Sequence record: OM908436.1
Reading direction: 5' to 3' (one strand)
Length of the DNA: 39,948 nucleotides
Origin: Escherichia phage TM1
Within the stretch, counting starts at the first letter, position 1. Every line of letters begins with the position of its first letter. Both the position numbers and the translations under genes were made by a program. Below the pieces are notes generated by a model that saw nothing but the letters and a program-made list of their open reading frames with translations, did no database searches and was not told the origin of the DNA. This document shows positions 1 to 39,948 of this stretch, one piece after another.

Positions 1-127
1 GCGTCAGCCGGGATGGTCCCGAAGCTATCGTGAATCACTGCGAATGACATCACGCCATATTTGCGGTGCGTGTGGACTACAGTCTTGCGGAGGTGGCTAC
101 CATCTTGTGAGTGGACGAAGTTCGGGC
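1..127. repeat. Exact duplicate of window bases 39822-39948 (127 bp); probable assembly overlap of a circularised contig
   Basis: Base-for-base identity of the two window ends; 127 is a common maximum k-mer length; the duplicate lies inside the RNA polymerase coding frame. Confidence 0.8.
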
Positions 128-2492
128 TAATGCCTGACTCCTGCTTGTGCTTGTCCAGCTCTTTCTTCGTGCCTTTGTTGACTGTAGGCTGAAGGTTGAA
201 TGACCCTAAGAACATCAGGTTCAGACGAGTGGTATCCTTCTTGCGGTATTCCTGCCAGACCGGGAAACCATCAGGTGTTACCCAGTGTACCGGAAGGCAT
301 GGCTTCAGGATTTCACCAGTCTTCTTGTCCTTCACTTCAGCAGCCAGCAGCTTGGCAGCACCTTGAAGCCACTTCATCGCGTCAACCGCAGCAACTACGG
401 TCACACTCACAGCTTCCCAAATCATCTTAGCCATGAATCGAGACGCTTGGCTTGGCTCGGTGAACATAGCGCCAGACCCTGAGTCAATCGCTGGCATCAC
501 GATATCCTCGTAAACTTGGTCTGCGAATCCGTACTCTTTCGACCCGTATGCCAGAGTCATGACTGAACGCTTAGTGACCTTGCGTGACATACCATATGTC
601 AGCCACTGACGGGCCAGCTCTCGTGTCCCCAGCTTGATACGTTCGGTAATCTCACCAGTTTTCTTGTCCTCGTGAGTGACCATCTCGTTGTCAGTACCGT
701 TAATCAGCAGGACTTTAAGCTCCTCCTCAATGCGGTCAGACACGATTCGGTAGATGTCTTGGACCTTACCGGATGGCGTCAGGTTTACTGCATGTCCACC
801 GATGTGGTCACGAAGCATCGCGCTGAAGTGCTGAATCCCAGAGCAGGACCCATCGAACGCTACCGGTAGCGAGCAGGAGTACGACAGGCCGTGGTGCATT
901 ACGCCAGCATACTCGAAGCAGAACGCAAGGAAGCAGAACGGAGAGTCTAACTTGCCCCACCACTCAATGCTATCCATTGGTGCTTTAGCCGCAGTCATGA
1001 TGTTGTCGTGGTTGTCTTCAACCCACTTGATGCGCTCCTCGAAGGTGACTTTATCGACACCCGCACAGTTTGCACCGTGGACCTTCAGCCACTTGAAACC
1101 ATCAGCGCCAATAGGCTTGCCGACTGCCAGAGTAAGGAGACCTTTCTGCATGTCGTTGCCTTGAGGGTTGAACATCGGCACAGCGTAGACTCGACCGCGC
1201 CAGTCCATGTTGTACGGAAACCAGATGGCCTTGAACTGAGAGAACTTGTTCGCTTGGTTAACGATAAAGCTCAGTGACAATCTACGTGACTGCCGGGCCT
1301 TCTCTCGGCGGTAGATACCAGCAGCAGCCTTCTTCCATGCCTTGAGTTCTTCTTCAGTCTCACCCGCATAGTCCTCAGGCTTCAGTGGCTCCATCTGAGG
1401 GATATCATCAATAGGCGTGTTGTTCAACTTCTCGACCATGTTTACCACGTCCAGCACCTTCTTGTTCACTTTCCACGGTGTATTCTGGATGATATTCACA
1501 GCGTCATAGACTTCAGGCATGTACACGTCTTCGTAACGTGCTACCGCAGACTTAGACCCTAAGCGAATCAGTGGCAATGGTCTTCGACCTTTGGCCCAAT
1601 ACCCACCGCCTACGACACCAGTCCACGGCTTTGGTGGAACGACGCAAGGCTGATAGACTGGCGCAATACCCGCGAGGCTGAATCCGCGTTGTGCCATCTT
1701 CTTGACCCAGAAGTCTGACAGGTGGACCATCTCAACGTCAGCCGCCGCATTGCCAGCACCGTAACGCTTAAGCTCGACCAGTTGTGTAGACTGGATGACA
1801 ATCTCAAGCATCTTGATGCCAACGTGTACCGCTTCGGTCGGACTCCAAGTACCCCACGCATCTTCCAGCTGACCTTGCTCAAGCATGGAGGTCTCAACCG
1901 CTTGCATGTAGGCTTTCTTGTAGGATACCCCTGCTCGCTTGTTCAGGTTCTCAGCTATCGCCTTCTTGAAATGCTCCTTCTCCTGATCACGGATGCGACC
2001 GAAGCGGATTTCATCCTCAAGTGTGCGACCTATCGCTGAGGCCATCGGTGTAATCGGGATCCCTTCAGGCTTGACCAGCTTGGAGAGGATGACCTTCAGT
2101 ATGATAACCGCAGCAGACTCACATGAGATGCGCAGAGAGCGGTCCTTGACGGCCTTCTCTTCAGTGCTCAACATGGTGAACGCCACGCTAGGACGAGAGG
2201 TTGACAGCTTCCCGTCTGGCCCTTCATGCCACTCCTTGACGGCTTGCGCAATCTTAGGGACCAGAGTCTGCATCAAAGGCTTGGCGACCTGATTGTCTGC
2301 CAGTTCCCCGCGCTCAGTCTGGCGCTCAAGGTTCTTGATGAAACGTCGCTCGCCTTCAGTGTATGCCTCGTGCTCAAGCTGAAGCTGTTTGACTGCAAGG
2401 TCTTGCCCGTAGTGGTCAGCCAGCAGGTTAAACGGCTCAATGGCGTTCGACACATCAGAGAAGTCGTGTTTTTCAATAGAGATGACGCTCAT
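1..2492 (-). CDS. gp1: T7-type single-subunit DNA-directed RNA polymerase, N-terminal and central part (start codon 2490-2492; continues across the window edge into 39632-39948)
   Basis: Reverse translation from 2492 gives MSVISIEKHDFSDV..., matching the T7 RNAP N-terminus MNTINIAKNDFSDIELAAIPFNTLADHYG; frame is continuous with the C-terminal piece through the 127-bp overlap (about 893 aa in total). Confidence 0.9.
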   Translation of the reverse strand, partial: MSVISIEKHDFSDVSNAIEPFNLLADHYGQDLAVKQLQLEHEAYTEGERRFIKNLERQTERGELADNQVAKPLMQTLVPKIAQAVKEWHEGPDGKLSTSRPSVAFTMLSTEEKAVKDRSLRISCESAAVIILKVILSKLVKPEGIPITPMASAIGRTLEDEIRFGRIRDQEKEHFKKAIAENLNKRAGVSYKKAYMQAVETSMLEQGQLEDAWGTWSPTEAVHVGIKMLEIVIQSTQLVELKRYGAGNAAADVEMVHLSDFWVKKMAQRGFSLAGIAPVYQPCVVPPKPWTGVVGGGYWAKGRRPLPLIRLGSKSAVARYEDVYMPEVYDAVNIIQNTPWKVNKKVLDVVNMVEKLNNTPIDDIPQMEPLKPEDYAGETEEELKAWKKAAAGIYRREKARQSRRLSLSFIVNQANKFSQFKAIWFPYNMDWRGRVYAVPMFNPQGNDMQKGLLTLAVGKPIGADGFKWLKVHGANCAGVDKVTFEERIKWVEDNHDNIMTAAKAPMDSIEWWGKLDSPFCFLAFCFEYAGVMHHGLSYSCSLPVAFDGSCSGIQHFSAMLRDHIGGHAVNLTPSGKVQDIYRIVSDRIEEELKVLLINGTDNEMVTHEDKKTGEITERIKLGTRELARQWLTYGMSRKVTKRSVMTLAYGSKEYGFADQVYEDIVMPAIDSGSGAMFTEPSQASRFMAKMIWEAVSVTVVAAVDAMKWLQGAAKLLAAEVKDKKTGEILKPCLPVHWVTPDGFPVWQEYRKKDTTRLNLMFLGSFNLQPTVNKGTKKELDKHKQESGISPNFVHSQDGSHLRKTVVHTHRKYGVMSFAVIHDSFGTIPAD

Positions 2493-2561: not shown

Positions 2562-2584
2562 GAGTCCTATAGTGATAGTTAAGT
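2562..2584 (-). promoter_or_regulatory. Phage-RNAP promoter-like sequence immediately upstream of the RNAP gene (ACTTAACTATCACTATA/GGACTC)
   Basis: Matches the phage promoter consensus at -13 to +2; initially transcribed region deviates (GGACTC instead of GGGAGA). Confidence 0.5.
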
Positions 2585-4433: not shown

Positions 4434-4485
4434 TTAGTGACTATCATTCAGGCCGCTAGAAGCTAACGACCTGTAGTTAATCACT
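4434..4485 (-). promoter_or_regulatory. Conserved early intergenic RNA hairpin element, copy A (candidate RNase III site)
   Basis: TTAGTGACTATCATTCAGGCC...GACCTGTAGTTAATCACT, same architecture as copy B. Confidence 0.45.
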
Positions 4486-4977: not shown

Positions 4978-5007
4978 ATACTACTTTAAGTCTGTACATC
5001 TTGTCAA
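4978..5007 (-). promoter_or_regulatory. Host sigma70-type early promoter (T7 A3-like): -35 TTGACA, -10 TAGTAT
   Basis: Transcript-strand ACAAAACGCTTGACAAGATGTACAGACTTAAAGTAGTAT parallels T7 A3 ACAAAACGGTTGACAACATGAAGTAAACACGGTACGAT (from memory). Confidence 0.55.
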
Positions 5008-5429: not shown

Positions 5430-5780
5430 TAACTGTAGGTTTAGACTGTAGGTAGCGGCAGTACCGATGGTCGATGACTGTAGGTAGTTAGACTGTAGGT
5501 AGTGACTCAAGGTCTGATACAGATGGAGACTCAGAGGCAGACCCATAGTCCCTACCTATCGTCTCCACCTCCAGCCATAGCCGATACCTATCGTTGACCT
5601 GAAGTCTTGACCATCGGTCCAGCCTTATGATAGACTGGGGTAGGGCCTTTGGTCTGGACTTAAAGAGGGCCTATGGGGAGACTTGAGGTTCTTGAACTGT
5701 GAGATGTGGTCTCAAACTTTTGGTCCAAAACTCATCGAAGACTGTAGGTGGCAGCTACTGTAGGTCAAGGACCGTAGGTC
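5430..5780. repeat. Candidate genome termini / concatemer junction: two arrays of ACTGTAGGT-type short repeats flanking a roughly 240-bp segment that may be the collapsed direct terminal repeat
   Basis: ACTGTAGGT at about 5432, 5445, 5477, 5492 and again at 5741, 5757, 5771 (one ACCGTAGGT variant); no ORFs; sits between gene 19 and the early promoters, like the CCTAAAG repeat arrays beside the T7 terminal repeat. Confidence 0.45.
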
Positions 5781-5939: not shown

Positions 5940-6098
5940 TTAATTACACTGAGACACCAGAGAACATACGAGAGTCTCGACCCACCCGACCCACTGACTT
6001 CCAGCAGTAACGCCAGCAGTAAGTAGAACAGCAGCAAGAAACCTGTATGTAGCTCGATTGGTCGCCAGAGCTTTAAGTACAGCTTTGGTCTTTGCCAT
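5940..6098 (-). CDS. Small hydrophobic protein (52 aa) at the gene 19.5 position
   Basis: ATG preceded by AGGAGG at about 8 nt; MAKTKAVLKALATNRATYRFLAAVLLTAGV...; below the ORF-track size cutoff, hand-translated. Confidence 0.4.
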   Translation of the reverse strand: MAKTKAVLKALATNRATYRFLAAVLLTAGVTAGSQWVGWVETLVCSLVSQCN

Positions 6099-6278: not shown

Positions 6279-6301
6279 CTTCCCTATAGTGATAGTTAAG
6301 T
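6279..6301 (-). promoter_or_regulatory. Phage-RNAP promoter downstream of terminase (phiOR-like)
   Basis: ACTTAACTATCACTATA/GGGAAG. Confidence 0.65.
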
Positions 6302-9203: not shown

Positions 9204-11204
9204 TTACCAGTAGTACCAATCACCTTTCCTACTTCTAATTAGAACAGAGCAATCGGCAACAGGTACTGTAGATACCCCACCAATCCTTATCTCATATAAT
9301 TTACTGGGTAGTCTTTTCTTAGTTAGAGATGCTTTAAAATCTGTACCGGTTACAGTGATATATTCTGTCCCCTCCTCACTAGCTATCTGTAGGTCCAGGC
9401 CACTGGGACTTGCTGGCAACTTAACATAAAGCTGCTGTTCTGCTGTACTACCGGCGAAATGACCAATAACGGTAGTTGTCCACTCACTCAAAGTCAGCCC
9501 TGAACGCACAAAATCTACATTAAGGGGTTCCTTAATAAGTGCAGCAGGTGCGTTGTAATTATGCCCGTTAAGTACATAGTAGTTGCTGCTGCCAACCTCT
9601 ACTGTGTCTGCTGTGCAATATGAGTGGAATGTTCTTGAATTATCAAAACGATAAAGACTTCTGATTAGCACACGCTCTTGATTACTTCTGGTTAAGATGC
9701 CACAACCAGCAGATAGGTGAAGTGTAGAGATGGTAAGTGTATGACTCTCGCTGTTAGCCTTAGACGACAATAATGATACCTTCGGCTCACCCACCTGAGT
9801 GAAGTCTTTACTGTTGCCCTCGCAGTACATAACCCCAATGTCCCACGCAGCAGGGTCCATTGTTACCACACCAGCACCAGATGTATTCTCAGAGCAAATC
9901 ACACCAACACTAGTAGATAAACCACGACCTAAGATAATACCAGCACCTATCGTATATTTACTCGCATCATCTGTGATTGGGTCATAACCTAGTCCAGTAG
10001 ACTTATCTGTACCCCATGCACTAATGTGAGGGAAGTGTGTAGCATTTACATAGGTATCCCCTTGCTCACCTTCCGTTGAATAACCTAATGCCATGCCCCT
10101 TGCACAGTTGTTTGCATGGAGAGTACCCATTTGAAAATACCAGCAAGCAAACATTACAATGCCATATCTATTAGCATTATATGCATAGATACTACCCATC
10201 TCGGATTCTGCACACATTAGTCGTGCGTAAAAACCGTACGATGCAATGTCTGCACAGTCTATGTTAAGACTACCAATCAAACGTAGCCCTCGTACTTGGT
10301 TCTCAGTATTAGCTACATCAACGGTTTTGGTTCCAATAGGAAATTTACTAACACGAACAACAGATTTTAATGCAGGCCATGTTGGACCAATTGCTTTAAT
10401 TGTTGCCCCATTTAGATTCCCACGTAGGTAAGAGGGGATAACAACCTCATCTGTTACGTGGTAGGTAGCCTTGCCATCAAGGTTTAATGTGCCTGTAGCT
10501 ATGGCCAATTTTATAGCAGGTAGACAGTCAAAGCTGGGGTCGTTCGGGATTGCCCCAAAGTTCTCAGGTGAGTGCTCATCAAGCCCATCCAGCTTACCTA
10601 CGTTAGTCCAATTGGAATCAGGGGTTGAACCTGCAGGCACTGTTTTTGGGAGAGCACCATCCCAGCGGTAATAATAACCATCCTCTTCCCTTAGCAGGAC
10701 CTCGTTCCATAGTGTAACGGTGAAGCCTTTCTCGAAGGAGCTACGGGTAATATAGCCAATTAGACCAGCCTCCCTGATACTCGAAACTATTCGTCGTGCT
10801 TCGTCCTCGCTATCCTTAGCGCTGCCAGCAGAGTTACCAGCAGCATCGGCATATTCCTTCGCTAAGTCAACAGTTTGGTCTCGCCCTTCTTCTGCAATAT
10901 GGATAGCCTGAAGCTCCGAATTGGTCAGGTCACTAGCTGTCAACACTGAGCCATTCCTGAAGTCTACCACTAAGTCAGTTCCAGTCTGACGGTGAATACG
11001 CACGACGTCGAAACCTGATTGGTCAGCCAACATCTCAATCATCGTTGGATTAAGGAATCGGTAATCTCGACCAACTTCCAGTACACGGTTCAGGGCAGGG
11101 TTAGAGCTATTCACCAGCGTAACAACAACAAACGTTCTGGCTAGGTAGTCGAACTCAATCCTGTACCGAGTGTTTCCTGAAGGGAATTGTGTAATCGTGG
11201 ACAT
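9204..11204 (-). CDS. gp17: Tail fiber / tailspike: T7 gp17-like N-terminal domain fused to a non-T7 C-terminal receptor-binding domain (probable beta-helix polysaccharide depolymerase)
   Basis: N-terminal [13 protein letters not shown] and [14 protein letters not shown]...[11 protein letters not shown] match T7 gp17 FEYLARKFVVVTL and VDFTDGSILRAYDL...QTMHVAEEARD; residues from about 150 onward have no T7 counterpart and are rich in short G-x-hydrophobic repeats. Confidence 0.85.
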
Positions 11205-11250: not shown

Positions 11251-11273
11251 GTTTCCTATAGTGATAGTTTAGT
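11251..11273 (-). promoter_or_regulatory. Phage-RNAP promoter upstream of the tail fiber gene (phi17-like)
   Basis: ACTAAACTATCACTATA/GGAAAC; overlaps the gp16 stop codon. Confidence 0.7.
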
Positions 11274-14200: not shown

Positions 14201-15165
14201 GTCAGCGGGTCTACACCCGAACCAATCACACCAGCAGCTAACTGAGCACCAGTCCCAGCCTTGGCCTTCTCTTGGTCCAACTTCTGGTTCTCAAGAGCCA
14301 AGTTAATAAGCTCGGTCAGGTTCTGAGGGGAGCCACCAGTGATGACCCCGTAATACTGAGGAAGAACTCCAGCGTTACGAATCTGGTCCAGCTCCTCACG
14401 AGACCACTTATGGTTGTTCCAGCGGGTCGGGTTAAACACATCGCCAATGACATCAAGTGAGTCCTCGGTCTGACCAGCGCGGATAGCCACGCCGACCATA
14501 GAGTTCTTCACTTCAGCTTCTGTAGCCTGGCCGAAACCGAACCACGTAGAGCGATCCTCTCGTTCCTGCATGGTCTCGCCAGCAGACTTATAGAACATCT
14601 CACCGAACGATTCGTTGGGAGCTTCAGGTGCTTGACCCTCAATGTTTAGACCAGCAGCGGTCGGAAGGTTCTCGCCCAGAGCTACTTTAGGTTTAGCCTT
14701 GAGTCCTTCCGTGAGTGCGTCAAATACGTTAGCGCTTACTGGTGGAGTCTTTGGGGTGATGCCCCCAGCACCACTTAAGGCGCGAGAGACTCCTAGCTTG
14801 TAGACCTCAGGGTCATACCGGGAACCAGTCTCATGGTAGCCGATAGCCTCAGACAGAGAGGCGAGGACATCAGGGTTCGTCAGGTCGATACTTTGTGTTG
14901 CTGGAATACCAGTCGCAGCCACAACAGAGTTGATGTAGGACTGAGTGTCGTTCTCATTAGGTGGTGCCCAGCGGTTGATAATCTTCTCGATAGAATCATA
15001 GCCCTGTCGACCATATGACATCAGGTTCTTAGCCAGAGCGCGTACACCGGAGTCGGGGGTGTCAAAAGTCACGAACGCCCCGTCATCACCCGTAGCCCCT
15101 TCCCACTGGTCCTTGGACACACGGATGTTCCCGATGTTGTTGTTTCTTATTCCACGTGCTGCCAT
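11269..15165 (-). CDS. gp16: Internal virion protein D with N-terminal lytic transglycosylase-like region (T7 gp16-like)
   Basis: 1298 aa versus 1318 in T7; position between gp15 and the tail fiber. Confidence 0.85.
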   Translation of the reverse strand: MAARGIRNNNIGNIRVSKDQWEGATGDDGAFVTFDTPDSGVRALAKNLMSYGRQGYDSIEKIINRWAPPNENDTQSYINSVVAATGIPATQSIDLTNPDVLASLSEAIGYHETGSRYDPEVYKLGVSRALSGAGGITPKTPPVSANVFDALTEGLKAKPKVALGENLPTAAGLNIEGQAPEAPNESFGEMFYKSAGETMQEREDRSTWFGFGQATEAEVKNSMVGVAIRAGQTEDSLDVIGDVFNPTRWNNHKWSREELDQIRNAGVLPQYYGVITGGSPQNLTELINLALENQKLDQEKAKAGTGAQLAAGVIGSGVDPLTYVPIAGQVGKGGKLVNKMFTVAAQSGALSGVSEMARTSVAGGDAHVAEAILGGALFGGGMTAIADGLGRALGRNTNEFAGPATRLEARETARNVDGQDLSRLPIQEGEQTFSHQGVKFADVPNEPGSVRLEDGSILIGENPLNPKTRKVFDEVIEPERAAAGVNLGGLTEIGLKLLRSENPEIRGVAADLVRSPTGMQSGASGKIGTTASDVFERLRAVDHRFYNDIDDAVTEALKDPYFQTAFWRDSGAFRQDIYQRVSMAIEDGSGNLKAELTPGELKVYDLLKNQFDAKREMMENPAMFGRPDAQSIFPGSRFKGTYVPHVYSNQMKELYIKELGSPEALQEAIKKSWLTSYASRPEVKKRVDEALLEADPTLTPEGLAAAVDKYANDKAYGISHTEQFERSSVMEENINGLVGLENNSFLEARNLFDSDMSIILPNGQTFSVNNLREWDMDKIVPAYNRRVNGDIAIMAGTGKTTKEMKDLVETMMNKAGDDGKLKGEVSTLRDTLKILTGRARRDGADDAAFATVMRTMTDLSFFAKNAYMGVQNLTEIGGMLARGNVRAMLHGVPIFRDLAFRNKKVGASEIKDLHNVIFGKELDDSIRPSKQDVIDRLRSYSALSKPAATALGSAKYYTGELAVRSPFTKVLNGTTNYLLDAGRQGFLSDIVEHSLTGSKRKFDDRWLKTAGISDEQWKGIKSLIRESVTRGPDGKYTIKDKKAFSQDPRAMDLWRMGDTIADETLLRPHKLSNMDAKAYGPLAKTVLQFKNFVIKSINGRTMRTFYNATKNNRAMDAALSTVMSMGLAGIYYMAQAHVKAYAMQDGRDREYLKQALDPTMIGYAALSRSSHLGGPLGVANILGGIAGYEDTKMLRSSILPRSPTEKPERAIAYGASTSDPVMNVVGNFLEQVPAFGYAANVGASAYNLAGYLKADTRVNERDYMTGMYNTFRELVPNDPITQKLLLGTFEEQGIHIKD

Positions 15166-15596
15166 GTTAATCTCCTCTTGATTCGACTAATAGTTACTGG
15201 TGAGATTCCTAAAATCCGTGCCAGTTCCACACCACTCTTCTCACTTGAACGGATAAACCTGACGTCATCTTCAGTAAGTACGCAGGTACTAATCTGAGAG
15301 CCTTTAGCTTGACGACCTCTCTTGGTCATATCCTCCATGTTGTCACGATGTGTCCCTAATACTAAATGTTTAGGGTTCACGCAATACCTGTTGTCGCATG
15401 TGTGACGAAGTACACTACCTTTCGGTATTGGACCATTCGCTAACTCATAGGCAACACGATGCGCTCCTACGGTCTTTCCGTCGACCCATATGTTTCCATA
15501 CCCACTGCTGTTCAATCCTCCAGTGAAGCGGATACAGCCAGTTTCTTCCGAAATAGAAAGACGTGCCAGTCTCTCACTGGCTGTCCCGTTCTTCAT
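15147..15596 (-). CDS. HNH homing endonuclease inserted between gp15 and gp16
   Basis: 149 aa; GYGNIWVDGKTVGAHRVAYELANGPIPKGSVLRHTCDNRYCVNPKHLVLGTHRDN is a typical HNH motif with conserved H/C/N positions; T7 has no gene here. Confidence 0.75.
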   Translation of the reverse strand: MKNGTASERLARLSISEETGCIRFTGGLNSSGYGNIWVDGKTVGAHRVAYELANGPIPKGSVLRHTCDNRYCVNPKHLVLGTHRDNMEDMTKRGRQAKGSQISTCVLTEDDVRFIRSSEKSGVELARILGISPVTISRIKRRLTWQHVE

Positions 15597-18964: not shown

Positions 18965-18987
18965 AGTCCCTATAGTGATAGTTAAGG
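18965..18987 (-). promoter_or_regulatory. Phage-RNAP promoter (phi13-like), lying in the loop of a 12-bp perfect inverted repeat
   Basis: CCTTAACTATCACTATA/GGGACT; flanked by AAGGGCCTATAG (18955-18966) and CTATAGGCCCTT (18993-19004). Confidence 0.7.
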
Positions 18988-21378: not shown

Positions 21379-21606
21379 TTAAATCATACTCATTAGGACG
21401 TATCCCTCAGCGATGTCACCAACGTCAGCAATGTGGACAACCTTACGCGCTACCTGTTGTCCAGTATACCCGTTGTCCCACTCATTCAGGATAAGCCAAT
21501 CACCAACCTTAAAGTCCCTGTCGTTAAGTCTCAGCTCTGCTGTCTTTAGACCTAGCTGTACCGGACCAAAGTGCTGGCGGTGAATCTTCAGGTTGTGACT
21601 AGCCAT
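21379..21606 (-). CDS. ASCH / DUF3850-like small protein (75 aa) inserted between gp11 and gp12
   Basis: LKIHRQHFGPVQLGLKTAELRLNDRDFKVGDWLILNEWD...YTGQQV fits, from memory, the DUF3850 (ASCH/PUA-like) signature; start overlaps the gp11 stop; T7 has no gene here. Confidence 0.6.
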   Translation of the reverse strand: MASHNLKIHRQHFGPVQLGLKTAELRLNDRDFKVGDWLILNEWDNGYTGQQVARKVVHIADVGDIAEGYVLMSMI

Positions 21607-22192: not shown

Positions 22193-22233
22193 CAAAAAAA
22201 CCCCTCAAGCACCCGAAGGCACCCAAGGGGTTT
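22193..22233 (-). terminator. Tphi-like intrinsic terminator after the capsid gene
   Basis: Transcript ACCCCUUGGGUGCC-UUCG-GGUGCUUGAGGGG followed by UUUUUUU; about 13-bp stem including G-U pairs; resembles T7 Tphi CCCCTTGGGG...CTTGAGGGGTTTTTTG. Confidence 0.85.
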
Positions 22234-22236
22234 CAA

Positions 22237-23411
22237 TTAGTTGTTGGACTCAGCCAGTTTAGCGGCCCTGTTCGCAGCACGAGTACGCGCAGCTTTCTGT
22301 TGAGGAGTTAAAGTCTCCTCTTCAGGTGCAGCCGCTACTGTAGCGACGTTAGGTTGGCTAAAGGTGCTTACGCCGCTGGGCTGAAAACCAGTGCGCCAGC
22401 CGCTTCAGGACGCAGACCACCGTGACCCATAGCGTACTTACCAACAATCAGGTCACCCTGAGCATCGACGTCACGGTCACGTTCCAGCGCCAAGTCACGC
22501 AGCTTAACGGTACCCACAGCAGAACGGTGAGAGAACAGACCAACAACGTTGTCCAGAGCAACTTTAACGTCACCAGTAGCAGTAGCTGGGAAGGCGTGCT
22601 TCTGACCAGTCGCAATAGTGATACCATCATCACCACGAGTTTCACCAGCACCACCCTGAGTCAAGTGCGGAACTTCAACAACCACGAAGCCCATTACGTT
22701 ACGGATGTTACCAGTCTCTGGGTCAATCAGCGCAGCATAGTTAGCAGCGTTCGGCATCAGAGCAGCGAGTATTGCAGAGTAGTTGTCCGGCGTGGTGTAG
22801 AAGTAGCGGTCGCCAGCAGGAACGTAGTTGGAGGTCAGCTTCGCACGAGCAATTGTCAGTTGACCGATGATTGCTTCACCCAGTTTAGCCGGGGTGTCTA
22901 GGTCAGCTTTCTTGCCTACTTCAAGTACGGACGCAGTACCCAGACCAGCAATGTTCTCGTTGGATGCAGCCGGGAGGTTACACAGGATAGCCATTTCAGC
23001 CAGCACCGCACCATCAGCAGCGATAGCCAGAGCTTCGCCCAACTGGTTGGAATACTCGCCAGCCACGTCGTAGTGGTTCATCGCGTCTTCAATGTCGAAA
23101 ATCATCACATCGGCAGTCAGCAGACCATCAATGGTAATCACTTTCTCGGTATGTTTGATACCTTTACGCTTATCGGACAGTCGCTCACCCGGAGCCAGAT
23201 ACACACCGGAGGTGCGACCCATGACCGGGAACTGAGCAGACTTACCGTTCTGAATGGTACGGACAATATGCTTGTCGGCAGTTACAGAGCGGCGAGTGAA
23301 TGCGGTCAGGACTTCACCAGCAAAGACCTTCAGGAACAACGCCAGAGCGTCGGAACCAGATTTGCCTTTACCTTGGTCTGTACCAATTTTCTGACCCGGA
23401 ACGTTTGCCAT
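22237..23411 (-). CDS. gp10B: Minor capsid protein 10B, made by a -1 ribosomal frameshift near the end of 10A
   Basis: Slippery G GUU UUC at about 22384-22390 (rc), identical to the T7 gene 10 slippery site; the -1 frame stays open for about 50 codons to a TAA at 22237-22239, just before the terminator. Confidence 0.6.
22368..23411 (-). CDS. gp10A: Major capsid protein 10A
   Basis: 347 aa; LALFLKVFAGEVLTAF, HTEKVITIDGLLTADV, AILAALMPNAANYAALIDPE, RSAVGTVKLRDLALER and KYAMGHGGLRPEAAGA are near-identical to T7 gp10A; strong SD AGGAGA before the ATG. Confidence 0.95.
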   Translation of the reverse strand: MANVPGQKIGTDQGKGKSGSDALALFLKVFAGEVLTAFTRRSVTADKHIVRTIQNGKSAQFPVMGRTSGVYLAPGERLSDKRKGIKHTEKVITIDGLLTADVMIFDIEDAMNHYDVAGEYSNQLGEALAIAADGAVLAEMAILCNLPAASNENIAGLGTASVLEVGKKADLDTPAKLGEAIIGQLTIARAKLTSNYVPAGDRYFYTTPDNYSAILAALMPNAANYAALIDPETGNIRNVMGFVVVEVPHLTQGGAGETRGDDGITIATGQKHAFPATATGDVKVALDNVVGLFSHRSAVGTVKLRDLALERDRDVDAQGDLIVGKYAMGHGGLRPEAAGALVFSPAA

Positions 23412-23525
23412 ATGATAATTCTCCTATTCAATTGAAAGATAAAGTTTATTACTTACTGTACGCCCAATCCGTATGGACTGAAGTAATAGGGAAACATTGA
23501 GTCTCTTCCTTTCAGAGTCTCTTGG

Positions 23526-23548
23526 TCTCCCTATAGTGATAGTTTAGT
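23526..23548 (-). promoter_or_regulatory. Phage-RNAP promoter upstream of the capsid gene (phi10-like); best consensus match
   Basis: ACTAAACTATCACTATA/GGGAGACC, about 115-nt leader to the gene 10 ATG. Confidence 0.85.
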
Positions 23549-24522: not shown

Positions 24523-24545
24523 TGTTCCTATAGTGATAGTTTAGG
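24523..24545 (-). promoter_or_regulatory. Phage-RNAP promoter (phi9-like) overlapping the portal gene stop
   Basis: CCTAAACTATCACTATA/GGAACA. Confidence 0.7.
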
Positions 24546-27281: not shown

Positions 27282-27342
27282 CTTGAATCTCCTCTTTAAG
27301 TTAAGACTAAAGTCTATCTTATAGTCATATCTTAGGTCCTAA

Positions 27343-27365
27343 AGTCCCTATAGTGATAGTTTAGT
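27343..27365 (-). promoter_or_regulatory. Phage-RNAP promoter (phi6.5-like)
   Basis: ACTAAACTATCACTATA/GGGACT. Confidence 0.75.
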
Positions 27366-29302: not shown

Positions 29303-29463
29303 TAGCCTTCTCCTTCTTCTTCGTTATGCTCTTTCAGAATTTCATGAATGTCTCGACTGCATGAACCACTGAGGTTTGGATTATAACCAGACTCCTCGTG
29401 TCCACACCACCAAGCTGACCGCATCAGGTCTTTGACCTCCTGCTCGCTATAAGTTTTAGCCAT
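29302..29463 (-). CDS. Small acidic protein (53 aa) between the HNH gene and gp5.5
   Basis: MAKTYSEQEVKDLMRSAWWCGHEESGYNPNLSGSCSRDIHEILKEHNEEEGEG; start overlaps the HNH stop and stop overlaps the gp5.5 start; hand-translated. Confidence 0.4.
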   Translation of the reverse strand: MAKTYSEQEVKDLMRSAWWCGHEESGYNPNLSGSCSRDIHEILKEHNEEEGEG

Positions 29464-29744
29464 TAGTGACACTCCTTCTTAACAAGTTTGCGCTCACGGT
29501 TCGTCTTAATGACGTGTTCGCGCTTTGGAATACACTGTAGGTGCTCTATGTTGCAGCACCCACGGTTCAAGCACAAATGGTCTATCTCGTAGCCATCTGG
29601 TATAGGTCCGCGCTTCTGCTCCCACACCCATCGGTGGAACATGAAGGCGAACTTGTTGCCCTTCCTGTAGCTTCCCATGGGGTACCTGAAGTACCCATCT
29701 TGGTTCCTCTTGTGGGACACGCAGACGATACATCCGGTAGGCAT
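29463..29744 (-). CDS. HNH endonuclease downstream of DNA polymerase (start uncertain; the longer ORF-track version would overlap the gp5 end)
   Basis: FHRWVWEQKRGPIPDGYEIDHLCLNRGCCNIEHLQCIPKREH is a typical HNH motif; Cys pair near the N-terminus. Confidence 0.65.
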   Translation of the reverse strand: MPTGCIVCVSHKRNQDGYFRYPMGSYRKGNKFAFMFHRWVWEQKRGPIPDGYEIDHLCLNRGCCNIEHLQCIPKREHVIKTNRERKLVKKECH

Positions 29745-29775
29745 GGTGTGGAAGCGTAGGGTCTTGGTTCGAGGG

Positions 29776-31947
29776 TCAGTGACACTCTTTCCACGTTGGC
29801 CCAATCTTACCCTCTGTATCAAGCTCACACTTGAAGTTATAAAAACGTCCGACCTCACGCATTGCTTCTTGTGCAATACGGACGACTTCTTCGGCAATCT
29901 CCTGAGTACGACACGCAATCTGCAATTCATCGTGAATCCAAGCCATTAGAGCAAAGTCACCATCCCAGCCATTACCGTAGCCAGCTTCCTCAAGTTTCTT
30001 CTCCGTCAGCACCATCCAGTGCTTACAGACAACCGCACCATCTCCTTGAAGTAGAGCGTTAAGTGCTGAGTGTGGCGACCGGATGTGAATGCGGCGACCA
30101 TCAAGTCCACGCAGCCAACGGCGTTTCCACTTAACGATGTTCTCTCCGTCCACCCACTTAGAGTCTGAGATTAACGTATTACTCACAGCTTCCCTGAGGT
30201 CCTTGATGGCTGGTGTACCCTCAATGAATTTCTTCATGAGAGCCGAACCTTCCTTCTTACCACCGCCGACTATCAGTCCAATCTTAGCGGCCCCTGCACC
30301 ATACAGGAACGCATAGATGAACGTCTTAGCGTTGTTACGGAAAGCCTCATGATCGTGGTTCGACTTATCGCGTGGGACGTTAGGTGCTAACCCAGCGTTG
30401 ACTGCGTTGGCCCAGTGGATGTCACCTTCGACCACAGTCTTCGCATAATCTCCACCATCAAACGGAGCTGCTCGGTTCCCCAGACAACGAAGCTCAAGAC
30501 CTGAAGCATCCACACCAACTTGAATCCAAGGGTCTGGCTTACCATCAGTCTTGTTCCAAGCTGCACCGAAAGCACCACGGCAAGTCTCACCATACGGAGC
30601 ACCGTTAGCAGGGACCTGAGCCATGTTTGGTGAACTATGAGTCGCACGTCCGGTTACTGCCCCGCATGGGTTGATTGAACCGTGCATACGTCCGTCTGGA
30701 CCTACAAGTTTCAACCATGCGTTCTTACCTTCAGCCGCCTGACCGATGCGCTTCTGGACTACCAGATACTCACGAACTAGCTCTACGCAAGCCTGAGCCT
30801 CTGCGTCTGGTAACTTAACGTGTTCTAACGTCTCGTCATCGACTACAGGTTTCCCGGTGTCAGTGAAGTCTACAGGCTCCCATCCACGCTCCATCAAGAC
30901 TTTCGCTAAGTGGTCTCCGCTTCCCGGATTAAACTCAACGTAAGTGATAGGTGTGAAAGGTGCTCCCTCCATCGTGTCTCGCGTATCGCGCTCACAAGGT
31001 TCAAGACCTAAGCGTTGAGCTTTGTTCTTCGGCTTCTTAAAGATGCCACCTATTTTAGGATACACGACTCGCGGATACTTCGGAAGGTCCTTGCCTGTCC
31101 GGGGGTGCTTGAAGAACTCCTTGCCTCCCTTTGGTGCGTACCAGCTACCGAAAGTCGAACGCAGCTTGTCCAGCAGCTCTGCACGTTTGACGGTGAGTTC
31201 ACGATATAAGCCTTCGACCATCTCTGTGTTCATCGGATAGCCGTTACGTTCCATCTTCGCACAGGTCCACGCAGCATCATGTTCCAGACGCAACGCATAA
31301 ATCTGGTCGAAAGCGAACTGTTCAGACTGGAAGTAATACTTGTCAGTCAGGAACTTCTTGAACAATGCCAGTGTGACCACAACGTCTTGAACGTTATAGT
31401 CCAGCATCTCCTGAGACGGGAACAACCATTCGTCCCCAGCCTTATATTCGATACCTTCAGCCTTGCACTTGGCAACGTAATCGTGTTTGTATTCACCTTT
31501 CATCTCACCAAGACGATAGCCCCAAGCCTCAAGAGACTGACGTCCCATCATCTTAGGTGGCAGACGGCCAGATTTCACCGCTCCCATGTCTGAGAACTTA
31601 ATGTTTGGATACATCAAGCGACCCAGCACCAAGGTATCAATCATCTTGTGTTTCGGGAAGTTAAAGCGCTTCCCAAAGTACAGACGTTTCAGCTTGTCAA
31701 TAGCCGGGACGTCGTAGTTGATACCGTTGTGGAATACCAGCATACCATAAGGTGATGCGGCAATCTCTTCCACTTTATGAACATACTCTTTGAAGCCACC
31801 GACGATACCGACCATCGGAGCTACCCCATACTTAAGGGTCTCATTCGACTCGGCGTTAATCAGGACCCCACAGTGAAACTGGGAGACTGTATCAAGGAGA
31901 CCGTTGGTCTCGATGTCAGAACCCCAGATACTCTTAAGGTCAAACAT
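29776..31947 (-). CDS. gp5: DNA polymerase (T7 gp5-like, family A, with 3-prime to 5-prime exonuclease domain); start at MFDLKSIW with SD GGAGGA
   Basis: DIETNGLL (exo motif), EAWGYRLGEMKGEYK, DYNVQDVVVT, GVDASGLELRCL, NAKTFIYAFLYGAG, WIHDELQ and the C-terminal H all align with T7 gp5; the ORF-track start at 31983 has no RBS. Confidence 0.92.
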   Translation of the reverse strand: MFDLKSIWGSDIETNGLLDTVSQFHCGVLINAESNETLKYGVAPMVGIVGGFKEYVHKVEEIAASPYGMLVFHNGINYDVPAIDKLKRLYFGKRFNFPKHKMIDTLVLGRLMYPNIKFSDMGAVKSGRLPPKMMGRQSLEAWGYRLGEMKGEYKHDYVAKCKAEGIEYKAGDEWLFPSQEMLDYNVQDVVVTLALFKKFLTDKYYFQSEQFAFDQIYALRLEHDAAWTCAKMERNGYPMNTEMVEGLYRELTVKRAELLDKLRSTFGSWYAPKGGKEFFKHPRTGKDLPKYPRVVYPKIGGIFKKPKNKAQRLGLEPCERDTRDTMEGAPFTPITYVEFNPGSGDHLAKVLMERGWEPVDFTDTGKPVVDDETLEHVKLPDAEAQACVELVREYLVVQKRIGQAAEGKNAWLKLVGPDGRMHGSINPCGAVTGRATHSSPNMAQVPANGAPYGETCRGAFGAAWNKTDGKPDPWIQVGVDASGLELRCLGNRAAPFDGGDYAKTVVEGDIHWANAVNAGLAPNVPRDKSNHDHEAFRNNAKTFIYAFLYGAGAAKIGLIVGGGKKEGSALMKKFIEGTPAIKDLREAVSNTLISDSKWVDGENIVKWKRRWLRGLDGRRIHIRSPHSALNALLQGDGAVVCKHWMVLTEKKLEEAGYGNGWDGDFALMAWIHDELQIACRTQEIAEEVVRIAQEAMREVGRFYNFKCELDTEGKIGPTWKECH

Positions 31948-33968: not shown

Positions 33969-33991
33969 CATCCCTAAGGTGATAGTTTAGG
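33969..33991 (-). promoter_or_regulatory. Phage-RNAP promoter-like sequence upstream of gene 4 (diverged at -4/-3)
   Basis: CCTAAACTATCACCTTA/GGGATG. Confidence 0.5.
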
Positions 33992-36088: not shown

Positions 36089-36111
36089 CTGTCCTACAGT
36101 GATAGTTTAGG
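36089..36111 (-). promoter_or_regulatory. Phage-RNAP promoter (phi2.5-like), overlapping the gene 2 stop
   Basis: CCTAAACTATCACTGTA/GGACAG. Confidence 0.6.
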
Positions 36112-37164: not shown

Positions 37165-37187
37165 TGGTCCTACAGTGATAGTTTAGT
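37165..37187 (-). promoter_or_regulatory. Phage-RNAP promoter (phi1.5/1.6-like)
   Basis: ACTAAACTATCACTGTA/GGACCA. Confidence 0.6.
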
Positions 37188-38796: not shown

Positions 38797-38837
38797 TCAT
38801 GAAGGCCACGACTTTTAGTCATGACCTTGAGTCTAAT
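38797..38837 (-). promoter_or_regulatory. Conserved RNA hairpin at +5 to +40 of the phi1.1-like transcript (candidate RNase III site, R1.1-like)
   Basis: CATGAAGGCCACG-N10-ATGACCTTGAGTCTA; 11-bp stem with two G-U pairs on the transcript strand. Confidence 0.55.
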
Positions 38838-38856
38838 CCTATAGTGATAGTTTAGA
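38834..38856 (-). promoter_or_regulatory. Phage-RNAP promoter (phi1.1-like)
   Basis: TCTAAACTATCACTATA/GGATTA; overlaps the stop of the 157-aa ORF. Confidence 0.65.
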
Positions 38857-39631: not shown

Positions 39632-39948
39632 TTAAGCGAATGCAAAGTCTGAAGACAAGATGTCTTCGATATTCAGTTTACCTTTCTTCGGAAGCTCAGG
39701 CAATTTGTCGCGCTGGCTCTCGTGGAGCTGGTATTCAAACTGCTCGTAGAAGTCAAGCAGCACATCGTTATCGCGGTAGGTCTCTACCATCGTCTCACGG
39801 ACGCCACGGAACAGATACTCAGCGTCAGCCGGGATGGTCCCGAAGCTATCGTGAATCACTGCGAATGACATCACGCCATATTTGCGGTGCGTGTGGACTA
39901 CAGTCTTGCGGAGGTGGCTACCATCTTGTGAGTGGACGAAGTTCGGGC
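39632..39948 (-). CDS. gp1: T7-type RNA polymerase, C-terminal part (stop codon 39632-39634); same gene as 1-2492
   Basis: HDSFGTIPADAEYLFRGVRETMVETY...LHESQRDKLPELPKKGKLNIEDILSSDFAFA matches the T7 RNAP C-terminus HDSFGTIPADAANLFKAVRETMVDTY...LRDILESDFAFA. Confidence 0.92.
   Translation of the reverse strand, partial: PNFVHSQDGSHLRKTVVHTHRKYGVMSFAVIHDSFGTIPADAEYLFRGVRETMVETYRDNDVLLDFYEQFEYQLHESQRDKLPELPKKGKLNIEDILSSDFAFA
39822..39948. repeat. Exact duplicate of window bases 1-127 (assembly overlap)
   Basis: See feature at 1-127. Confidence 0.8.

Follow-up and report, generated by a model that had tools for sequence, protein, structure and literature searches.

Eleven K1F-type promoters predicted for the phage-encoded RNA polymerase of Escherichia phage TM1

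Upstream of the major capsid protein gene of Escherichia phage TM1 (OM908436.1) lies a 23-bp element, phi10, which recurs elsewhere in the 39,948 nt that we analysed (the whole stretch, hereafter the window). A first-pass annotation, made from the sequence alone, had proposed that eleven such sites are phage promoters and that, because they depart from the promoters of T7, T3, K11 and SP6, this phage probably has a promoter specificity of its own. Here, we ask which RNA polymerase these elements would serve, and whether their class is particular to this phage.

The window is a circularly permuted Kayfunavirus genome (K1F-like, T7 supergroup; Autographiviridae, Studiervirinae) with all genes on the minus strand, ~92-95% nucleotide identity to many Kayfunavirus records, and gene-for-gene synteny with K1F from gene 0.3 to gene 19.5. 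Bases 1-127 are identical to bases 39822-39948, an overlap resulting from circular assembly, and the unit length is 39,821 bp. Several features of the genome lie apart from the promoter question (Table 1). HNH_3 homing-endonuclease-like ORFs occur at two places, behind the DNA polymerase gene and between genes 15 and 16; an IMG/VR relative with 92-94% identity lacks the second, which we therefore regard as a recent insertion. The gene 17 tail fibre (666 aa) resembles K1F gp17 only within its N-terminal ~210 residues, which comprise the T7 tail-fibre N-terminal domain plus Tail_spike_N. Since its receptor-binding part differs from the K1F endosialidase, the host receptor is probably other than the K1 capsule. 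A 75-aa ORF between tail genes 11 and 12 is absent in K1F and present in EcoDS1 and ST31, where its counterparts are annotated as 'RNA-binding protein'. Finally, the early region upstream of gene 0.3 contains two sigma-70-like candidates, reading TTGACA-18-TAGTAT and TTGACC-16-TACAGT, which likely correspond to the three host RNAP promoters that the EcoDS1 record annotates.

Eleven co-oriented sites and the capsid transcription unit

When the window was searched with the consensus of the first-pass annotation, ACTWAACTATCACTATAGG, allowing up to three mismatches, exactly 11 matches were returned, all of them on the minus strand, against a chance expectation of 0 and with no match in any of 100 dinucleotide-preserving shuffles. 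A position weight matrix (PWM) built from these sites gave them scores of 30.4-37.1 bits, and no other 23-mer on the two strands exceeded 11.9 bits. The proposal of eleven promoters with one shared consensus is thus borne out, and, given the gap between 30-37 and 11.9 bits, we take the 11 sites to be the complete promoter set. Scanning both strands of the window with the PWM yielded no further, weaker promoters, the top extra match being the one with 11.9 bits. This degenerate promoter-like sequence starts 29 nt downstream of phi6.5 and could be the remnant of a tandem promoter or have arisen by chance.

Aligned from -17 to +6, the 11 sites are invariant at -16, -15, -13 to -5, -2, -1, +1 and +2, with a total information content of ~36 bits; position -14 is degenerate (W). 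In all 11, positions -12 to -9 read ACTA in place of the CGAC of T7, just as had been noted in the first pass. Of the stretch from -8 to +3 described there as T7-like, the last position is G at only five of the 11 sites and A at the other six. All sites are co-oriented with the genes and occupy intergenic or gene-end positions, each placed either 35-120 nt ahead of a gene start or across the stop codon of the gene before it. In Table 1, they are named by the gene downstream of each.

At the focal site, the phi10 promoter is followed by a 120-nt leader, the capsid gene and a T-phi-like terminator, an arrangement as in T7. Gene 10, whose product shares 98% amino acid identity with K1F gp10, is predicted to be transcribed from phi10, and the T-phi-like terminator, which has an annotated counterpart at this map position in both EcoDS1 and PE3-1, is predicted to close this transcription unit. 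The phi10 23-mer is identical to phi10 of EcoDS1 and PE3-1, and to the matching sites of K1F, SH3 and ST31. As for the leader itself, it opens with GGGAGACCA, like that of T7 phi10, has a predicted 5' stem-loop (MFE z = -2.2), and contains two copies of the direct repeat AAGAGACTC, with starts at +10 and +26.

Table 1. Positions of the promoters, the polymerase gene and other features in the window
Feature	Coordinates	Strand	Start of 19-mer match	Sequence and remarks
phi10 promoter (focal, -17 to +6)	23526..23548	-	23530	ACTAAACTATCACTATAGGGAGA; -17 at 23548, +1 G at 23531, +6 at 23526
Promoter directly upstream of gene 1 (RNAP)	2562..2584	-	2566	ACTTAACTATCACTATAGGACTC; +1 at 2567, 75 nt before start codon
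phi1.1-type promoter	38834..38856	-	38838	TCTAAACTATCACTATAGGATTA; over stop codon of gene 1.05-like ORF
phi1.6 promoter	37165..37187	-	37169	ACTAAACTATCACTGTAGGACCA; -17 at 37187; G at -3; between ligase gene and gene 1.6
phi2.5 promoter	36089..36111	-	36093	CCTAAACTATCACTGTAGGACAG; -17 at 36111; G at -3; over gene 2 end, upstream of SSB gene
phi4 promoter	33969..33991	-	33973	CCTAAACTATCACCTTAGGGATG; -17 at 33991; C at -4, T at -3; upstream of primase/helicase gene
phi6.5 promoter	27343..27365	-	27347	ACTAAACTATCACTATAGGGACT
phi9 promoter	24523..24545	-	24527	CCTAAACTATCACTATAGGAACA; over gene 8 stop codon, upstream of scaffold gene
phi13 promoter	18965..18987	-	18969	CCTTAACTATCACTATAGGGACT
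phi17 promoter	11251..11273	-	11255	ACTAAACTATCACTATAGGAAAC; over gene 16 stop codon, upstream of tail fibre gene
phiOR promoter	6279..6301	-	6283	ACTTAACTATCACTATAGGGAAG; downstream of large terminase gene
Degenerate promoter-like sequence	27314..27336	-		CCTAAGATATGACTATAAGATAG; 11.9 bits
phi10 leader	23412..23531	-		120 nt
Gene 10 (major capsid protein)	22368..23411	-		
T-phi-like intrinsic terminator	22197..22234	-		17-bp stem then T run, between genes 10 and 11
Gene 1 (single-subunit RNA polymerase), codons 1 to ~830	1..2492	-		ORF runs off window start
Gene 1, 3' end including stop codon	39632..39948	-		bases 39822-39948 duplicate 1-127
Specificity loop coding region (T7 residues 739-772 equivalent)	147..248	-		YRKKDTTRLNLMFLGSFNLQPTVNKGTKKELDKH; identical to K1F
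HNH_3 homing-endonuclease-like ORF	29463..29930	-		after DNA polymerase gene
HNH_3 homing-endonuclease-like ORF	15147..15596	-		between genes 15 and 16
Gene 17 (tail fibre)	9204..11204	-		666 aa
75-aa ORF	21379..21606	-		between tail genes 11 and 12
Sigma-70-like candidate	4978..5007	-		TTGACA-18-TAGTAT
Sigma-70-like candidate	5741..5768	-		TTGACC-16-TACAGT

The phage RNA polymerase and its specificity loop

Because the window ends cut gene 1, an RNAP-sized ORF is missing from the plain ORF list; joining the ends restores gene 1 as an ORF of 893 aa that extends from 2492 to 1 and then from 39821 to 39632. Its product matches Pfam RNA_pol (E=1.4e-106) and RPOL_N, aligns over its full length with T7 RNAP structures, and conserves the catalytic residues D537, K631, Y639, H784 and D812. 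In an alignment with RNAPs from reference records, its identity amounts to 98.7% with K1F, 63.9% with T7, 63.8% with T3, 59.2% with K11 and 32.5% with SP6. A search of the PDB found no K1F-type RNAP structure, the full-length solved relatives being T7 RNAP only.

Over T7 residues 735-775, the polymerase is the same as that of K1F, all 12 differences between the two proteins falling outside the loop. Against T7, by comparison, the loop carries 14 substitutions across residues 739-772, namely K740R, P742K, I743D, Q744T, Q754S, R756N and I761V, followed by T763K, N764G, K765T, D766K, S767K, I769L and A771K. Among the base-contacting residues R746, N748, R756 and Q758 (PMC11880802), only R756 is altered, to N, and the other three are kept. 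The alignment at N748, R756 and Q758 that the first-pass annotation had proposed as a check therefore reveals a loop that is not T7's, with N748 and Q758 retained. The N-terminal loop aligned with T7 residues 93-101 differs as well and contains a 2-residue insertion, a divergence that fits the promoter sequence ACTWA at -17 to -13, where T7 has TAATA.

The loop type is not confined to this phage. A 71-aa segment spanning it is found in 135 phage records with >=99% identity, and a further 69 records match it at 95-99%. Just 17 have an identity of 80-95%, and another large group appears only at 60-80%, with T7 among its members.

Relation to known promoter classes

The phi10 promoter differs from the T7, T3, K11 and SP6 promoters by 8, 5, 7 and 11 mismatches, respectively, so that the specificity region indeed departs from all four, as first proposed. 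Neither T7-, T3- nor K11-type cores were found in the window, and the SP6 type is represented by one chance 2-mismatch 14-mer only. The likeness to T7 is nevertheless extensive: both share a 23-bp architecture with a start at G, the stretch from -8 to +2 (TCACTATAGG) is identical to that of the window sites, and the T7 consensus is identical to phi10 from -8 all the way to +6, the eight mismatches being confined to -17 to -14 and -12 to -9. The map positions (phi1.1, 1.6, 2.5, 4, 6.5, 9, 10, 13, 17 and OR) are also those of T7, as is the placement of a T-phi terminator after gene 10. T7 has 17 promoters, including phiOL near the genome end, whereas the window has 11, none of them near a genome end as phiOL is. 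Assignment to the T7 specificity class was rejected on three grounds: ACTA replaces CGAC, R756 is changed to N, and the window PWM gives the T7 consensus a score of -0.9 bits. Nearest among the four classical classes is T3, which has A at -12 and C at -11 in common with the window; however, T3 has CC at -10/-9 where the window has TA, and A rather than T at -2, and its RNAP carries D748 and R756 in place of N and N.

K1F was missing from the comparison set of the first-pass annotation. The K1F genome carries the core AACTATCACTATAGG at 11 corresponding sites, and the record of EcoDS1 (EU734172/NC_011042; 2008) annotates 11 phage promoters at the same 11 map positions, one of them just upstream of gene 1. 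Ten of the 11 window 23-mers are base-for-base identical to annotated EcoDS1 promoters (the phi1.1-type site, for instance, to EcoDS1 6034-6056), phi1.6 being the exception, and PE3-1 annotates phi6.5, phi9 and phi10 with identical sequences. The consensus common to the window and Kayfunavirus (EcoDS1, PE3-1, Ro45lw, Sparklingdew) is (A/C)CTWAACTATCACTATAGG(G/A)A, and CTWAACTATCACTATAGG has been reported as a dispersed repeat, interpreted as promoters, in a Kayfunavirus genome paper (PMC13298934). Public viral contigs contain at least 120 stretches with the promoter core.

This class has also been characterized experimentally. Working with purified RNAP from Escherichia phage Ro45lw, Takatsuki et al. 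(JBC 2025) located the 5' end of the transcript at G and arrived at the minimal promoter ACTTAACTATCACTATAGGGA (PMC12272871), which equals the consensus of the first-pass annotation. Previously, Temme et al. (2012) had replaced T7 Q744-I761 with the K1F segment and swapped promoter positions -12 to -7 to the K1F consensus, obtaining a T7(K1F) chimera and promoter that were active together and orthogonal to the T7, T3 and N4 types (PMC3458549). By alignment with the window RNAP, that graft amounts to four substitutions. The loop segment equivalent to T7 Q744-I761 and the -12 to -7 block of this engineered RNAP/PK1F pair are the same as the natural ones in the window; the engineered version, though, has a T7 backbone and T7 sequence at -17 to -13, whereas the window promoters have ACTWA there, together with a matching divergent N-terminal loop. 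The native K1F RNAP with PK1F is in use as an orthogonal expression system, the K1F, MmP1 and VP4 systems showing low crosstalk (PMC12218169), and K1F is a named cluster in a 2025 network of RNAP-promoter specificity (PMC11880802). By analogy, these features would make the class orthogonal to T7 and T3. The promoter class is thus already known: it is present in GenBank, has been tested in the laboratory, and is used in synthetic biology.

Considering this record, the suggestion that TM1 has a new RNAP/promoter specificity of its own falls, and we give it virtually no credence. It would draw on the departure of the consensus from T7, T3, K11 and SP6 at -12 to -9 and -17 to -14, and on the 14 loop positions that differ from T7, but the loop is 100% identical to that of K1F, the polymerase as a whole is 98.7% identical to its K1F counterpart, the 71-aa loop segment recurs in many phage records, 10 of the 11 promoters coincide with those of EcoDS1, and the consensus is that of a well-known class with published activity. 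It is similarly very improbable that the repeats constitute some other dispersed cis element, be it a homing-endonuclease target, a packaging or replication signal, or a host sigma-70 promoter. Although in the PE3-1 record the element preceding gene 1 is labelled 'host RNAP promoter', and the genome does encode two HNH homing-endonuclease-like ORFs, the latter are not adjacent to the repeats, and no sigma-70-type -35/-10 pair overlies the gene 1 site. Moreover, all copies are in gene orientation, just upstream of genes and at canonical T7-group promoter positions, their core is the T7 initiation region, and RNA made from the same sequence by a Kayfunavirus RNAP in purified form has its 5' end at G (PMC12272871). 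Judging from the sequence comparisons, the eleven 23-bp repeats are almost certainly the complete promoter set of the phage-encoded single-subunit RNAP of a Kayfunavirus (K1F-like, T7 group).

Promoter reading, graded sites and the control of gene 1

By homology with T7, the early region and gene 1 would first be transcribed by the host RNA polymerase, after which the gene 1 polymerase would bind each promoter as duplex DNA, its specificity-loop beta-hairpin reading approximately -12 to -7 in the major groove and its N-terminal loop reading -17 to -13. TATA at -4 to -1 would then melt, and RNA would start at G +1. With residue-to-base contacts extrapolated from the T7 complex, ACTA at -12 to -9 would pair with the K1F-type loop, which has R756N, Q744T, Q754S and I761V within the grafted segment. 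We expect R756N to accompany the loss of the C:G pair at -9. However, N748 is kept although -11/-10 change from GA in T7 to CT, and a picture in which one residue reads one base is therefore incomplete.

Graded promoter strength had been suggested from several sites with G at -3, but only two such sites exist, phi1.6 and phi2.5, with phi4 deviating in another way, through C at -4 and T at -3. All three are early or middle promoters, class II-like, while the six late and phiOR promoters conform to the consensus throughout -16 to +2 save at the degenerate -14. In a comparison of six genomes (the window, K1F, EcoDS1, PE3-1, SH3 and ST31), the phi2.5 (-3G) and phi4 (-4C/-3T) variants are fixed in all six, and phi1.6 is sub-consensus in every one of them, with G at -12 and a consensus TATA (A at -3) in K1F, EcoDS1, PE3-1, SH3 and ST31. 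The version with A at -12 and G at -3 was found in the window and in two IMG/VR genomes (4451-4469; 1183-1201). The ligase adjoining phi1.6 is only 74% identical to that of K1F, from which we conclude that the phi1.6 region is a mosaic module.

T7 distinguishes class II from class III promoters, and it is plausible, by analogy, that the early and middle variants are weaker and that strength is graded in the same manner. The alternative is that the -3/-4 deviations represent neutral drift with no effect on strength. Only three sites deviate, and, because the genomes compared are closely related (~92-95% nucleotide identity), conservation of a 23-mer across the six is weak evidence of selection and cannot by itself prove that selection acts on these variants. 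Still, drift is a rather unlikely explanation for deviations that are restricted to early and middle promoters and spare every late one, that recur unchanged at phi2.5 and phi4 in each genome, that arise at phi1.6 by two different substitutions (-12G or -3G), and that mirror the class II/class III distinction generally known from T7.

The promoter upstream of gene 1 is present in all six Kayfunavirus genomes, five of them having identical 23-mers and SH3 having A for T at -14. It carries the full phage consensus and is annotated as 'phi' in EcoDS1, whereas in PE3-1 (2874-2896) the 'host RNAP promoter' label is attached to an identical sequence. No sigma-70-like hexamer pair was found over this site in the window; given this and the full phage consensus, the host-promoter reading was rejected. 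The absence of an overlapping hexamer pair also indicates that the PE3-1 label is probably an annotation error. In T7 and T3, the position that this phage promoter holds in the window, directly before gene 1, is taken by the minor host promoter C; the K11 record annotates no promoter between genes 0.7 and 1. An analogous phage-specific promoter is located upstream of the RNAP gene in LUZ100 (PMC10134795). With this analogue, and with the site annotated in EcoDS1, an autoregulatory gene 1 promoter is not new in kind.

As a discovery, the locus carries little weight, the K1F-type promoter and polymerase pair being an established orthogonal transcription part. Its value is one of annotation, as the 11 phage promoters, the split gene 1 and the T-phi terminator can be labelled confidently. 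Beyond this, we put forward as a tentative reading, one toward which the balance does not yet tip, that the temporal programme of Kayfunavirus differs from that of T7, with an autocatalytic gene 1 and sub-consensus middle promoters held by selection, and that N748 may read -11/-10 in a manner unlike that in the T7 structure. If so, the phage promoter situated 75 nt before gene 1 would place the polymerase under positive autoregulation.
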